Counted from the first letter of the stretch, positions 7,364 to 11,645 are shown. The stretch is 30,071 nucleotides of DNA from Elusimicrobiota bacterium (GCA_043731745.1 JAYTIP010000119.1:1-30071), one strand, 5' to 3'. The notes: a model not told the origin generated them from the letters alone. A program made the numbers and translations.

Positions 7364-7501
7364 ATGACCATCACCCTTTTGGCCGCCGTTCCCGCCGCGA
7401 TCTTGACCGCGATGTACCTCTACGAGCGCCGCGAGTTGACGCCTCTGCGCGCCCGCGCGGCCCGCTCCACGCGCGACAACGCATTGCGCGGCCGCCGCTA
7501 G
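7364..7501 (+). CDS. 45-aa single-TM small protein (absent from the ORF track)
   Basis: MTITLLAAVPAAILTAMYLYERRELTPLRARAARSTRDNALRGRR*; GGAG SD, own promoter, stop shares CTAG with the mutM stop. Confidence 0.55.
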   Translation: MTITLLAAVPAAILTAMYLYERRELTPLRARAARSTRDNALRGRR

Positions 7502-8280
7502 CGCTGACAGTTCGGGCAGTAAGCGCTGGCGCGCCCGCCGATGCTCTTGCGCGTGCCGATGACGGGCTTGCCGCAGGTCCCGCAGGCCTTGCGCCCGTAC
7601 ACCATCACGCCCATCTGCATGCGCCCCGGGCGTCCGAGCGGATCGAGGAAGGCCTCGTCGTCGAGCGTCGCGCCGCCGGCCTCCACGCCCGTGCTCAAGA
7701 TATTCCGGCAGGCGACCGCCAGCGCGTCCGACTCCGCCCGTGAGAGCGACTTGCCGGCGCGTCCGGGGCGGACCTTCGCCGCGTGCAGGGCCTCGGTGGC
7801 GTAGATGTTTCCCAGGCCCGCGATCAGCTTCTGGTCCATGATCAGCGCTTTGACGGGCGCGGTGCGCTTGCGCAGGATGCGCCACAGGTAATCAGGCGTG
7901 AACTCGGGGTCCATCGGCTCGGGACCGAGTTGAGGCAAGGGGCAGCCCACGCGTCCGAAGCGGCGCGAGTCGTGAAAGCGCACGGCCTCGGTGCCGATCC
8001 ACATTTGGAAGCGCACATGGGGGCTTTCGCCGCCGACCGTGATGCGCCCGGACATCCCCAAGTGAAAGATCACCTCGCCACGGCCTTCGATGACGACGAT
8101 CAGGTACTTGCCGCGGCGCTTGAAGGCCGCGATCACGCCGCCGGTCAGGATTTTGACGGCGGCGAGCGGCGGGGCGCGGTAGAAGGTGGGCTTGCCGAGC
8201 GCGACGGCCGTGATCGTCTGGCCTGCGTAGCGCTCCTGGAGGACGCGGCGGACGGTTTCGACCTCGGGAAGCTCCGGCAT
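7498..8280 (-). CDS. mutM: Formamidopyrimidine-DNA glycosylase / AP lyase (Fpg)
   Basis: N-terminal MPELPEVET, RRGKYL, H2TH GLGNIYATEAL, C-terminal zinc finger CGTC..GRASAYCPNCQ. Confidence 0.95.
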   Translation of the reverse strand: MPELPEVETVRRVLQERYAGQTITAVALGKPTFYRAPPLAAVKILTGGVIAAFKRRGKYLIVVIEGRGEVIFHLGMSGRITVGGESPHVRFQMWIGTEAVRFHDSRRFGRVGCPLPQLGPEPMDPEFTPDYLWRILRKRTAPVKALIMDQKLIAGLGNIYATEALHAAKVRPGRAGKSLSRAESDALAVACRNILSTGVEAGGATLDDEAFLDPLGRPGRMQMGVMVYGRKACGTCGKPVIGTRKSIGGRASAYCPNCQR

Positions 8281-8816
8281 CAGCGCCCGCAGGAGCCCTT
8301 ATTCCAGGGCAGCTTGGCCAATATCAGGGCCATCGTGCAGATGTCGGTCACGGCGGCGAACACGAGGCCGCAGCCCACGAAGAGCGCCAGAAAAAGCCAC
8401 TTGAAGTTGACCATCAGGCCCAAAGTCGTACCGACGATCACTAAGGAGCCCGCGATGAAGCGCACTTGGCGCTCGAGGGACCAGACGCGGCTCGTGCCGC
8501 GGATCACGGGCTTGCCCGCCCCGGCCCAGGCCTCGATGCCGCCGTCGATGACGCGGATGTCCTTGACGCCGAGCGCATGGAGCTTCTCGGCGGCCTTCGC
8601 CGCGCGCGCGCCCGAGCGGCACAGCAGAAACACGGGGCGGCCGCGGTCCACGCGGTCGGCCAAGGCGTCGAGGCGGGAGAGGGGCAGGTTCAGGGCGCCT
8701 TCGACGCGGAGCGCGTCGATCTCCATGGTCTCGCGCACGTCCACGAGCTGGCCGACGCCCTTCTCCTCGAGCGTACGATGGGCCTCTTCAGGTCCCACGC
8801 GGCTGTAGGCGCTCAC
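8280..8816 (-). CDS. Rhodanese domain plus DUF2892 membrane domain (YgaP-like)
   Basis: LVDVRE, active-site loop LCRSGAR, GGIEAW, then WSLERQVRFIAG and two TM helices with Cys. Confidence 0.88.
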   Translation of the reverse strand: MSAYSRVGPEEAHRTLEEKGVGQLVDVRETMEIDALRVEGALNLPLSRLDALADRVDRGRPVFLLCRSGARAAKAAEKLHALGVKDIRVIDGGIEAWAGAGKPVIRGTSRVWSLERQVRFIAGSLVIVGTTLGLMVNFKWLFLALFVGCGLVFAAVTDICTMALILAKLPWNKGSCGR

Positions 8817-8819
8817 GGA

Positions 8820-10238
8820 CTAGTACTGAGGAACGGAGGGATCGATCGCTTCCGACCAGGCGTTGATCCCGCCGACCACATTGGTCGCGTCGTAGCCCTT
8901 CTCCCTCAGAAACTGAACCGCTTTGGCCGAGCGCCCGCCCATCTTGCAGTGCACGATGATCTTGGCGGACTTGTCGATCTCGCCGAAGCGCTCGGGCAGC
9001 TTGCCCAGGGGGATCAAGGTCGAGCCTTCGATCTTGGCGACCTCGTACTCGTGGGGCTCGCGGACATCAAGCAAAACGAACTTTTCCTTCTTGTCGAGCT
9101 TGGCTTTGAGATCCTGAACCGAGATTTCGGGGATGGTGGACACGGGCTTCTCCTTTAAACCGCAGAACGCTTCGTAATCGATCGGGGCCTTGATGGTCGG
9201 ATTTTCCGAGCACACGGGGCAAGAGGGATTTTTCTTCACCTTCAGCGTGCGCCAGCTCTGCTCGAGGGCGTCATACAGCATCAGGCGGCCCGACAGCGAA
9301 CGCCCGATGCCGAGGATGAGCTTGAGCGTCTCGATGGCCTGCATCGTGCCGATGACGCCGGGTAGCACGCCCAGCACGCCGGCCTCCGAGCAGGACGGCA
9401 CGAGGCCGGGGGGCGGGGGCTCCGGGTATAAACAGCGGTAGCAGGGGCCGTCTTTCAATCCGAACACGGCGAGCTGGCCTTCGAAGCGGAAGATCGAGCC
9501 GTAGGCGTTGGGCTTGCCGGTGAGCACGCAGGCGTCATTGACGAGGTAGCGCGTCGCGAAATTGTCGGTGCCGTCGGCGATCACATCGTATTTCTTGAAC
9601 AGCTCCACGGCATTGGCGGAGGTCAACCTCATTTCGTGCAATTCGACGCTGACGAAAGGATTCAGTCCCTTAATCCGTTTCTCGGCGGACTTGAGCTTCG
9701 AGGTCCCGACCGAGGCCGTATCATGAATGATCTGCCGTTGGAGATTCGACTCGTCGACTTTATCGAAGTCCACGATGCCGATGCGCCCCACGCCGGCCGC
9801 GGCCAGGTACAGGGCCAAGGGCGAGCCCAGCCCGCCCGCGCCGACGCACAGCACCGACGCGTTCTTGAGCTTCTTCTGCCCTTCGGGGCCGACCTCGGGC
9901 ATGATCAGGTGGCGGTCGTAGCGTGCCAGCTCGGCTTTCGTCAGCTCGAGCTCGGCGACGGTCGAGCCGCCCGCGATCGCGGGGACGATCAAGATCGTGT
10001 CGCCGTCTTTGACCGGCGTCGCGAGGCCTTGTTTGTCGCGGGCGTCGTCCTCGTTGACATAGACGTTGACGAAGGAGCGAAGCTTGCCGTCGGGGGTCAT
10101 CAGCTGCTGCTTGAGGCGATCGTGCTGCTTGAAAAGCTGCTCGAGCGCCTCGCCGGCGGTCTTGGCGTCGACGGTGATCTTCTCCTGCTTGTCCGCGAAA
10201 GCCCGCAGGGCCGTCGGCAATCTGATCTCAATGCTCAT
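8820..10238 (-). CDS. moeB: Fusion of ubiquitin-like sulfur carrier (MoaD/CysO-like, residues 1-91 ending AIAGG), ThiF/MoeB E1 adenylyltransferase and rhodanese (MoeZ-type)
   Basis: Beta-grasp N-terminus to PAIAGG; GAGGLG, DGTDNF, CYRC, PSCSEAG, CPVC; C-terminal LDVRE..HCKMGGRS. Confidence 0.92.
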   Translation of the reverse strand: MSIEIRLPTALRAFADKQEKITVDAKTAGEALEQLFKQHDRLKQQLMTPDGKLRSFVNVYVNEDDARDKQGLATPVKDGDTILIVPAIAGGSTVAELELTKAELARYDRHLIMPEVGPEGQKKLKNASVLCVGAGGLGSPLALYLAAAGVGRIGIVDFDKVDESNLQRQIIHDTASVGTSKLKSAEKRIKGLNPFVSVELHEMRLTSANAVELFKKYDVIADGTDNFATRYLVNDACVLTGKPNAYGSIFRFEGQLAVFGLKDGPCYRCLYPEPPPPGLVPSCSEAGVLGVLPGVIGTMQAIETLKLILGIGRSLSGRLMLYDALEQSWRTLKVKKNPSCPVCSENPTIKAPIDYEAFCGLKEKPVSTIPEISVQDLKAKLDKKEKFVLLDVREPHEYEVAKIEGSTLIPLGKLPERFGEIDKSAKIIVHCKMGGRSAKAVQFLREKGYDATNVVGGINAWSEAIDPSVPQY

Positions 10239-10241
10239 AAT

Positions 10242-10688
10242 TTAGCCTTCCAGAACGATCTCTTCTTCGATAAACGAACGGCCATCTTCCGTTCTCTGCC
10301 AGGACCGGGAGTCCACGACCTTGCCATCCTTCACTTGAAGAATCCAATAACTGCAACATGGCATCGCCATCGTCAAATCAAACGGCGAGGGCCACGCCGG
10401 CACCGTGGGATGCGAGTGGAAGAACCCGATCACGCCCCGCCCGCTTCCCGACAGCTCCATTTCGACGCGCGCCATCGTCTTCGGATCGATCAGGTACTTG
10501 TTCGTCTTCGCCGAGGCGTCCCAGCCGTTGGGCAGGGGCCGCGCCTCGTCGATTTGCAGCGCGCGCCCCATCGCGTCGAAATTATCGGGGATCTTCCCGA
10601 TGAGCAGGCCGCAGCCTTCCTCGGGGAAGGCCTTCTCCGCCGTCTTCACCGCGATCTCCTCGACCGCGCGGTTGAGGGTCAGGCTCAC
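10242..10688 (-). CDS. JAB/MPN+ (JAMM, Mec+-like) metallopeptidase
   Basis: PEEGCGLLIG and GFFHSHP..AWPS.FD motifs; GTG 10688 overlaps the cysM stop (GTGA). Confidence 0.9.
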   Translation of the reverse strand: MSLTLNRAVEEIAVKTAEKAFPEEGCGLLIGKIPDNFDAMGRALQIDEARPLPNGWDASAKTNKYLIDPKTMARVEMELSGSGRGVIGFFHSHPTVPAWPSPFDLTMAMPCCSYWILQVKDGKVVDSRSWQRTEDGRSFIEEEIVLEG

Positions 10689-11611
10689 GGCGTCCAGAAC
10701 CTCTCGCCGAGGTAACGCTCGCCCGAGTCGCAGAACACGGTGGCGATCACGGCTTCGCGGCCCTGCGCCACGAGATCCTTGCCCAGCCGCAACGCGGCGG
10801 CGAGGTTGGCTCCGCCCGAGGGCCCGAGCAGGATTCCGGCTCTCTTTCCGAGGACGCGCGCCGCGTCCTGCGCCTCCTCGGTGGCGATCTCGATGCGGCT
10901 GTCGGCCACCGTGTCGTCGTAGATCTTGGGGATGATCGAGGTTTCCATGTGCTTGAGGCCCTCGAGCCCGTGCATGGGACCGTCCGGCTCCATGGAGATC
11001 AAGCGGATATTTTTGTTCAGTTCGCGCAGGCGGCGTCCGGCGCCCACGAAGGTGCCGCTTGTTCCTAAGCCAGCCACGAAGTGGCTGACCTTGCCGTTGG
11101 TTTGCGCGAAAATCTCGGGCCCGGTGGTCTCGTAGTGCGCGCGCCAGGTCATCGGGTTGGAGTACTGGTCGGCGTACCAGTAGCGCTCGGGCTCGGCTTT
11201 GAGCATGAGGCGGACCTCGCGGATCGAGCCGTCTGAGCCTTCGAGCGGATCGGTGAACAGAAGCTCGACGCCGTACGCCTGCAGAATCGCGCGCCGGTGC
11301 TTTGAAATCGAACCGGGCACCGCGAGAGCGACCTTCACGCCCAGTCGCGCTCCCAGCCACGCGTAGGCGATGCCGGTGTTGCCGGAGGAGGAATCGAGCA
11401 GGATCTTGCCGTCGAGCTTGCCCGTCTCGAGCGCGTCCTTGATGATGAAGTAGCCGGCGCGGTCCTTGACCGAGCCCCCGGGGTTGGCCCACTCGGCTTT
11501 GGCCATAATCTTGACCTTGTCGCCGAGCTCCGGAAATGCGAAGGAGACGTCGAGCAGCGGCGTGTTTCCGACCTTAATTCCGTCGAAACCGCGGGAGGCC
11601 AAAGCGGGCAT
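10685..11611 (-). CDS. cysM: PLP-dependent cysteine synthase family protein (CysM-like)
   Basis: VGNTPL, NPGGSVKDR (PLP lysine), SSGNTG, GLGTSGT, LGPSGGAN; start set at ATG 11611 from promoter geometry. Confidence 0.88.
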   Translation of the reverse strand: MPALASRGFDGIKVGNTPLLDVSFAFPELGDKVKIMAKAEWANPGGSVKDRAGYFIIKDALETGKLDGKILLDSSSGNTGIAYAWLGARLGVKVALAVPGSISKHRRAILQAYGVELLFTDPLEGSDGSIREVRLMLKAEPERYWYADQYSNPMTWRAHYETTGPEIFAQTNGKVSHFVAGLGTSGTFVGAGRRLRELNKNIRLISMEPDGPMHGLEGLKHMETSIIPKIYDDTVADSRIEIATEEAQDAARVLGKRAGILLGPSGGANLAAALRLGKDLVAQGREAVIATVFCDSGERYLGERFWTP

Positions 11612-11616
11612 GATCC

Positions 11617-11645
11617 AGTCTAACATACCTGACTATTTCGGTCAA
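11617..11645 (-). promoter_or_regulatory. Sigma70 promoter of the cysM operon (leaderless)
   Basis: TTGACC 11640-11645 - N17 - TAGACT 11617-11622, 5 nt, ATG 11611. Confidence 0.65.

Follow-up and report, generated by a model that had tools for sequence, protein, structure and literature searches.

A probable CysO-type cysteine operon of an Elusimicrobiota bacterium, with a sulfur carrier fused to its own E1 and predicted to be released by the co-encoded JAB peptidase

Among the closest described systems to the locus analysed here is that of Mycobacterium tuberculosis, which comprises the peptidase Mec+ (Rv1334), the carrier CysO (Rv1335), CysM (Rv1336) and the activating enzyme (E1) MoeZR (Rv3206c). 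In this system CysO ends at its Gly-Gly (GG) motif, and Mec+ serves for the release of cysteine only. The same four protein families are encoded by a minus-strand operon in a stretch of 30,071 nucleotides from an Elusimicrobiota bacterium (GCA_043731745.1, JAYTIP010000119.1:1-30071; hereafter the window, contig C119 of a 3.02-Mb genome assembled in 427 contigs and 90.8% complete). The mycobacterial MoeZR has a dual role (PMC3227635). Like MoeZR, the single E1 of the window probably serves both a cysteine carrier and MoaD. The mycobacterial moeZ is unlinked and CysO is a separate protein, whereas in the window the carrier, a ubiquitin-like (Ubl) domain, forms one polypeptide with the E1, and a single operon encodes all four functions; due to this fusion, the JAB peptidase of the window would need a role in carrier maturation beyond that of Mec+. 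It further differs from the mycobacterial system in that its CysM-like enzyme scores below the curated cysM cut-offs.

A second group of related systems are the carrier precursors matured by JAMM peptidases, such as QbsE by QbsD and HcyS by HcyD. Similarly, DR0402 of Deinococcus cleaves a linear MoaD-MoaE fusion, leaving a C-terminal glycine (PMC8832034), HvJAMM1 of Haloferax cleaves linear SAMP1 fusions (PMC8832034, PMC4443979), and M. tuberculosis MoaX needs cleavage for its activity (PMC4326299). Such precursors possess residues or a whole protein after the GG, and a JAMM enzyme exposes the terminal glycine. The window shares two of their traits, residues encoded past the GG and a linked JAMM gene; however, its passenger is the E1 instead of MoaE or a short peptide, and the predicted product of the pathway is cysteine.

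The gene arrangement itself has a precedent. Iyer, Burroughs and Aravind described in 2006 operons of ThiS/MoaD, E1-rhodanese and JAB genes, with or without a cysteine synthase, as classes 4b-4d, and, in the sections of their survey devoted to these operons, proposed that JAB cleaves off a fused ThiS/MoaD domain to expose its C-terminus (PMC1779556). As far as these sections go, the gene content of classes 4b and 4c is that of the window operon, carrier-E1 fusions are named only for ThiF of the Campylobacter type, and the Elusimicrobiota lie outside the sample. The Campylobacter-type protein (Table 1, row 1, of that survey) shares the N-terminal Ubl on a ThiF-family E1; its operons, as given there, have no JAB but contain thiamine genes and a further solo ThiS, whereas in the system of the window a JAB is always present and neither a second ThiS nor ThiG was found in the genome. 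The sequence-only reading of the window had placed its novelty in the mechanism. This has to be given up, as the mechanism was proposed in 2006 and JAMM cleavage of MoaD-MoaE and SAMP1 fusions has been demonstrated (PMC8832034). With a mechanism on record and close experimental precedents, the known picture of this pathway type remains unchanged. An experimental study of any Ubl-E1 fusion was not found in the literature.

The fused carrier and its junction

Based on gene comparisons and structural modeling, we consider it quite probable that the window encodes a CysO-type, protein-thiocarboxylate-dependent cysteine operon with a carrier released by JAB, corresponding to class 4c of Iyer et al. 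(PMC1779556). The carrier is recognized by the Pfam model ThiS (PF02597), the whole profile of which covers residues 5-91 of the fusion protein (5.5e-14) with its last position on Gly91, and it marginally reaches the NCBIfam SAMP1 model NF041918 (60.5 bits, cut-off 60). Gly91 continues in frame as S-T-V-A-E-L, and 381 residues lie beyond it; the primary translation product offers no free C-terminal glycine, and proteolysis would be needed to generate one. The observation of the sequence-only reading that Gly90-Gly91 runs straight into the E1 is thus borne out by the codons at 9966-9971. The first in-frame ATG, GTG or TTG codon after the GG is that of Met113, which is located beyond a conserved RYxRH helix, and, accordingly, the E1 with its N-terminal helix cannot be translated separately.

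The remainder of the protein has the architecture of MoeZ, a ThiF-type E1 with a C-terminal rhodanese domain (PF00899, PF00581), and scores below the cut-offs of two equivalog models (MoeZ NF005902, 490 versus 647 bits; NF005646, 552 versus 633 bits). In an alignment of orthologues, Pro86, Ala89, Gly90 and Gly91 of the carrier are invariant, as are the GxGGLGS nucleotide loop, Arg106 and the cysteine residues 266, 269, 340 and 343 of the E1 and Cys431 and Arg436 of the rhodanese domain. An AlphaFold2 model of the fusion (m64ebba2a0b06) has a mean predicted local distance difference test score (pLDDT) of 81.8 with confident Ubl, E1 and rhodanese domains; across residues 88-99 the pLDDT drops below 50, that is, the linker is modeled as disordered.

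The junction is conserved on one side only. At the fusion point, P-[AS]-[IV]-A-G-G occurs without exception in 25 Elusimicrobiota fusion proteins with and four without the rhodanese domain as well as at 70 fused loci of other phyla, and the split relatives examined likewise all have the GG. The stretch following the GG in the fusions comprises 6-39 residues (median 13) of variable sequence, in which alanine (22%), glutamate (13%), proline (11%), threonine (10%) and also serine are frequent; conservation resumes at L-[ST]-x-[ED]-E-x-x-R-Y-x-R-H, the N-terminal helix of the E1. Depending on the genome, the residue immediately after the GG is S, A, T, N, E, G, K, R, V, I, Q, M, L or C. Judged from alignment and model, a GG that never varies, with a linker behind it that is disordered and unconserved, looks like a site of proteolytic processing within a flexible tether rather than a structural junction. 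The wide choice of residues at this position fits a peptidase which reads the Ubl and its GG and which would also hydrolyse a GG-Cys bond, the reaction of Mec+. In one Pyrinomonadaceae fusion (locus L099) the junction motif is doubled to IAGG-IAGG, resulting in two candidate cleavage sites.

JAB, its linkage to the carrier and the split forms

The JAB encoded in the operon has an intact E...HxH...S..D motif, and 23 orthologues all share the residues Glu24, His91, Ser92, His93, Ser101 and Asp104. Its closest solved structures are 2KCQ and 2KKS, and its best NCBIfam match is the model for haloarchaeal desampylase (53 bits, below cut-off). A complex of JAB, zinc and residues 1-110 of the fusion was predicted with ipSAE values of 0.82, 0.82 and 0.80 in three runs (best control 0.00); among reference cases, 58 of 80 solved complexes attain the mark applied, as do two of 110 mismatched pairs, a calibration that is only approximate here, as custom alignments and a zinc ion were included. 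The contacts agreed to at least 86% between runs, with a partner pLDDT of at least 81. In the modeled interface, Glu24, His91, His93, Ser101 and Asp104 of JAB meet carrier residues 85-94, which include the GG and the three residues of the linker next to it. A second JAB gene is present in the genome on contig C171 (L003:1252-1797, minus strand); it codes for 181 residues with an intact HSH...S..D motif and a basic C-terminal tail and adjoins a gene judged by eye to be transposase-like, and no Ubl or E1 gene was seen nearby.

Among 401 Elusimicrobiota genomes surveyed, 25 others at species level have the fusion at full length and free of stop codons; they come from the genus and the family of the window, two sister families and a further family in its class. 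In the protein collection, 863 clusters (at 90% identity) hold the carrier region within proteins of 259-826 residues. A scan of species-representative genomes found at least 600 stretches, of which 596 were confirmed to be related to the query, and the best 80 loci were analysed. These 80 loci belong mostly to the Acidobacteriota (Pyrinomonadaceae, Blastocatellia, Bryobacterales, Vicinamibacterales and Terriglobia), with a few labelled Ignavibacteria, Longimicrobiales, Eisenbacteria, Dormiibacterota or Capsulimonadaceae. Seventy are fused, and all of the 68 fused loci with enough upstream DNA to be assessed have a same-strand JAB gene no more than 3 kb away, which in most cases abuts the fusion; a gene of the Pfam family PALP, to which the cysM-like gene belongs, is present at most of them. 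Three out of three further loci from the protein search have JAB immediately upstream and a PALP or MetY-type gene before it. Within the Elusimicrobiota, cysM-JAB lies directly upstream at every fused locus with a rhodanese domain, and the PALP gene upstream of JAB is kept in relatives and adjacent in nearly all. The fusion architecture is widespread and already annotated, under database labels such as MoeB, "adenylyltransferase/sulfurtransferase" and "ubiquitin-like small modifier protein 1".

The co-occurrence of fusion and JAB, for which the sequence-only reading had proposed a survey, is close to complete (68/68 and all rhodanese-bearing Elusimicrobiota fusions). That reading had named fusion homologues often lacking a JAB as a refutation. 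Fusions without an adjacent JAB were found only in a clade of Elusimicrobiota with low G+C content, where a strong JAB match is encoded elsewhere in five of five genomes checked, and the reading is thus not refuted by them. Its operon (L059-L064, e.g. L063:139-4487) contains an orthologous Ubl-E1 fusion without rhodanese domain along with genes for TusA, a second solo ThiS, a PALP enzyme, a second PALP protein of about 410 residues and a NIL-domain protein. The 410-residue protein, which has an N-terminal Cys-rich motif, was taken as threonine synthase-like, and the operon may represent a homocysteine or a cysteine pathway.

The linkage also bears on the question of whether the system mainly serves protein conjugation of the SAMP/TtuB type, with the Ubl attached to target lysines, JAB as deconjugase and cysM of secondary importance. 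This possibility, raised in the operon sections of Iyer et al. (PMC1779556), draws on the carrier reaching the SAMP1 model and on the desampylase match of JAB. However, a PALP or MetY-type sulfhydrylase gene accompanies the module at most loci across phyla, carrier, JAB and cysM are lost together (see below), and the locus has no E2-like or E3-like gene. Sulfhydrylase linkage and co-loss argue for sulfur transfer as the primary function, and we regard conjugation as the main role as very unlikely.

Natural variation within the genus of the window provides further evidence. In GCA_038211115.1 the same operon occurs with separate genes, the E1 being 92% identical to that of the window: a carrier of 92 residues ends GG-R-stop, and an E1 of 379 residues starts M-P-E-L-E-L. 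The junctions of the two genomes differ by a 5-nt indel. A second congener has split independently, with a carrier that ends GG-STHGA-stop and overlaps the E1 start. In an E1 tree both fissions are nested separately in an otherwise fused clade, the fusions of the low-G+C clade have a separate origin, and well-supported branches force at least four changes between the fused and the split state. One might ascribe the fusion to an error of assembly or sequencing, with 5 nt missing between two genes, since the indel is the sole junction difference from the split sister genome and the assembly is fragmented; however, the frame is open in the 25 other species-level genomes with linkers of differing sequence and length as well as in the 863 protein clusters and more than 590 genome stretches, and a separate E1 would have no in-frame start codon before Met113. 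We therefore give this explanation almost no weight.

All 13 split carriers in JAB-linked operons (three from Elusimicrobiota, ten from other phyla) possess 1-27 residues past the GG, and none ends at it, whereas the two split carriers of the low-G+C clade, in which JAB is not adjacent, end exactly at GG-stop. By these alignments, the carrier of the JAB-linked family is always a precursor, with anything from one residue to a whole E1 after the GG. One split carrier from the Terriglobia (L159:2716-3357) has a 27-residue extension with a CCPPAC motif.

An alternative division of labour, in which the carrier is freed by another protease or by self-cleavage and JAB is only a Mec+-like hydrolase of the carrier-Cys adduct, is similarly improbable to us as a primary role in conjugation. 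Carriers in JAB-linked operons, fused or split, are always extended, the split carriers of the clade in which JAB is not adjacent (two loci) end at GG-stop, and in the complex model the active site of JAB receives carrier residues 85-94. Both roles represent the same chemistry, the hydrolysis of a peptide bond after GG, and JAMM enzymes mature carriers in the QbsD, HcyD and DR0402 systems. The alternative is also less economical. In its favour it can be noted that M. tuberculosis Mec+ only releases cysteine, with a CysO that ends at GG, that the low-G+C fusions have no adjacent JAB, and that the genome of the window encodes the second JAB on contig C171.

Release by JAB, the reading we prefer, is also consistent with the pattern of gene loss. 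The congeners G216 (94% complete) and G347 (87% complete) retain E1-rhodanese-fpg and MoaE; neither a carrier nor a cysM gene was found beside the E1, and no Prok-JAB match above the cut-off was found in the whole genome. Carrier, JAB and cysM behave as one module, and the E1 appears to have a second job. At four loci of one Elusimicrobiota family of the same class (L047, L051, L052 and L058), an unfused E1-rhodanese gene is followed 0.1-1.2 kb downstream by cysM and JAB, and no carrier gene was detectable there by tblastn; at L047 the intervening open frame is regulator-like by eye, and JAB lies within an open frame of more than 300 residues.

Proposed pathway, probable shared E1 and likely serine substrate

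In the proposed pathway, translation would yield the carrier as the first 91 residues of the MoeZ-like E1-rhodanese that activates it. As an internal Gly-Gly without free carboxylate is not adenylatable, the co-translated JAB would have to cut the Gly91-Ser92 bond within the disordered linker, yielding a carrier of about 10 kDa that ends in GG and an E1 starting at Ser92. The E1 would adenylate the freed carrier, and the persulfide of the rhodanese domain would convert it to the thiocarboxylate, which CysM would condense with an activated serine, likely O-phosphoserine. After an S-to-N acyl shift, the same JAB would hydrolyse the GG-Cys peptide bond, setting free cysteine and recycling the carrier. 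The same E1 would also activate a separate MoaD. Release of the carrier by JAB is supported by every comparative test run. The data show the architecture and its conservation, the patterns of co-occurrence and co-loss and the modeled interface, and from these we infer the cleavage itself, the chemistry of the thiocarboxylate, the choice of serine substrate and the double functions of JAB and the E1. A double role of JAB in carrier maturation and cysteine release had already been suggested by the sequence-only reading, and GG invariance, JAB linkage, extended split carriers, co-loss and the complex model are in favour of it. The accompanying idea of a 1:1 stoichiometry of carrier and E1 with proteolysis as an on-switch found no support, the fusion state being labile within one genus.

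As fusion and fission have recurred within one genus and translational coupling is kept in the split forms, the fusion is probably a tolerated state, enabled by a GG-specific peptidase that is indifferent to what follows the GG, rather than a regulatory device or selected switch. It might still be speculated that the tethered carrier blocks the Ubl-binding site of the E1 and that cleavage by JAB, possibly sensitive to metal or redox state, gates all thiocarboxylate flux for both cysteine and molybdenum cofactor (Moco); we consider this unlikely.

The E1 of the fusion is the only ThiF-family match in the genome. Likewise, the fused carrier domain is the only Pfam ThiS (PF02597) match, with no second solo ThiS in the genome or the operon by this model. 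The Pfam search had suggested the fused domain as the sole carrier of the genome, an idea that was dropped when a MoaD was found beside MoaE: an 81-residue protein encoded on contig C73 (L006:380-622, minus strand), between a MoaC/MogA-like gene and MoaE, ends LPPVCGG-stop and was missed by the Pfam ThiS model even at an E-value of 0.1. It is conserved in four congeners, with LPPVCGG-stop every time, and among PDB profiles it matches H. pylori MoaD (3RPF) best, weakly (E 0.049) but with the same C-terminal motif. We take this protein to be a dedicated MoaD that ends naturally in GG. As the genome has a sole ThiF-family E1 and a separate MoaD, the E1 probably activates MoaD for Moco synthesis in addition to the fused carrier. 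The sequence-only reading had considered that the freed Ubl itself might feed Moco synthesis; the dedicated MoaD beside MoaE speaks against this, and the probable shared part is the E1.

The free MoaD is also relevant to the possibility that the fused Ubl is never released and functions as a docking or regulatory domain, with sulfur reaching CysM as sulfide, via the rhodanese persulfide or via MoaD. For Ubl-ThiF fusions with a solo ThiS in the operon, another role of the fused domain was inferred in the relevant section of Iyer et al. (PMC1779556), and the low-G+C operons have exactly this layout, with a second ThiS and no adjacent JAB. The window operon, however, has no second solo carrier, MoaD is located with MoaE on another contig, and there is neither ThiG nor a thiamine context: within the genome no credible ThiG was found, the best match reaching 23 bits over 39 profile positions in a 442-residue frame. 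The combination of a constant GG and a linker that is neither conserved nor ordered marks a processing site, the split sister genes show the domain working as a free protein, and JAB tracks the carrier both in presence and in loss. A permanently tethered Ubl is thus quite unlikely, and we favour its release by JAB.

With regard to the serine substrate, no cysE was found in the 90.8%-complete genome (best match 30.6 bits, cut-off 210.65), and O-acetylserine is probably not made in this host. As no cysE was found, O-phosphoserine is predicted as the likely acceptor serine for CysM. A second cysK/cysM-like PALP gene is located on contig C287 (7641-8549, minus strand) inside an open frame of 466 residues; it scores 328 bits with the cysKM model, below the cut-off, and may be cystathionine beta-synthase-like.

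Several points weigh against the proposed pathway. The cysM-like protein falls below the curated cut-offs for both cysM (TIGR01138; 300 bits, cut-off 394) and cysKM, and by sequence it is no closer to CysM of M. tuberculosis (3DWG, 163 bits) than to its closest solved structure, CysM of E. coli (2BHS, 195 bits); thus, the use of a thiocarboxylate by this enzyme is not established. The fusions of the low-G+C clade indicate that adjacency of JAB is not universal, and since the split genomes of this clade encode JAB as well, its presence there is not specific to the fusion. The performance of the complex model may reflect a likeness to solved JAMM-Ubl complexes and is not proof, and the support for Ubl-E1 cleavage is comparative or modeled only. 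Finally, the absence of cysE, of a second E1 and of other carriers is provisional at 90.8% genome completeness.

If confirmed, the cleavage would be the first bench demonstration of a sulfur carrier delivered as a polyprotein with its own E1, and a bacterial parallel to the ubiquitin precursors processed by deubiquitinases. The pathway, if true, would explain how cysteine is made in hundreds of soil and groundwater bacteria of the Acidobacteriota, Elusimicrobiota and other groups. To our mind the most notable results are the polymorphism between fused and split forms at the genus level, which offers ready-made natural controls, the co-loss of the module, and the fact that JAB-linked carriers are always extended past the GG.

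Operon layout and accessory genes

The five genes of the operon (Table 1) are closely joined. The cysM stop codon overlaps the JAB start in the sequence GTGA (10685-10688); the JAB stop codon TAA (10242-10244) and the fusion ATG at 10238 are separated by 3 nt, as are the fusion stop codon (8820-8822) and the GTG of the YgaP-like gene at 8816; and the fpg ATG at 8280 overlaps the stop codon of the YgaP-like gene. Gene coordinates and Pfam domains thus agree with the five-gene minus-strand operon, joined by overlaps or 3-nt gaps, that the sequence-only reading had described.

Table 1. Positions of the operon features in the window
Feature	Position	Strand	Basis
Sigma-70-like promoter match, TTGACC / 17-nt spacer with TG / TAGACT	11617..11645	-	Consensus match only
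cysM-like pyridoxal phosphate-dependent sulfhydrylase, 313 aa	10685..11626	-	PALP 2.8e-58 (Pfam)
JAB/JAMM (MPN+) metallopeptidase, 148 aa, GTG start	10242..10688	-	Prok-JAB 8.2e-18 (Pfam)
Ubl (ThiS/MoaD/SAMP1-like) + linker + ThiF-type E1 + rhodanese, single open reading frame of 472 aa	8820..10238	-	Pfam, NCBIfam, AlphaFold2
Ubl beta-grasp carrier domain, residues 1-91, end motif IVPAIAGG	9966..10238	-	PF02597
Gly90-Gly91 codons; predicted scissile bond Gly91-Ser92	9966..9971	-	GG invariance and complex model
Linker, residues 92 to ~100	9939..9965	-	Low pLDDT, variable in relatives
ThiF/MoeB-type adenylation domain, residues 107-342	9213..9920	-	PF00899 1e-83
C-terminal rhodanese domain, residues 374-463, active-site loop HCKMGGRS	8850..9119	-	PF00581 2.7e-18
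YgaP-like membrane rhodanese, 178 aa, accessory	8280..8816	-	Pfam Rhodanese and YgaP-like_TM
fpg/mutM DNA glycosylase	7498..8280	-	Pfam Fapy_DNA_glyco and H2TH; NF002211, 234 bits (cut-off 212)

A promoter scan yielded three matches against 0.2 expected in shuffled sequences, with one plausible promoter, which is located ahead of the operon; no convincing internal terminator was found in the operon scan, the terminator count being that of shuffled sequence. The -10 box of this promoter (11622-11617) falls downstream of the first cysM ATG (11626), and a second ATG is located at 11611, 5 nt past the box; alignments of cysM with its relatives mostly start at residues 4-6 or later. The position of the -10 box, itself a consensus match, suggests that the true cysM start is the ATG at 11611, giving a protein of 308 residues. 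A cysM transcript with this start may be leaderless or nearly so.

The remaining two genes, for the YgaP-like rhodanese and fpg, are both outside the core of the system. By its position fpg would be co-transcribed with the operon; it sits behind the E1 gene even in relatives that have no carrier, JAB and cysM, two loci (L034 and L042) consisting of E1-fpg only. The YgaP-like gene is variably present and is missing or truncated in many relatives. In GCA_038211115.1 (L014:5142-5345) it is cut down to the 67-residue membrane part. Some congeners (loci L016, L018, L019 and L032) possess an extra standalone rhodanese gene, located behind the E1 gene and ahead of either fpg or the YgaP-like gene, the product of which is about 66-69% identical to the rhodanese domain of the E1 itself.

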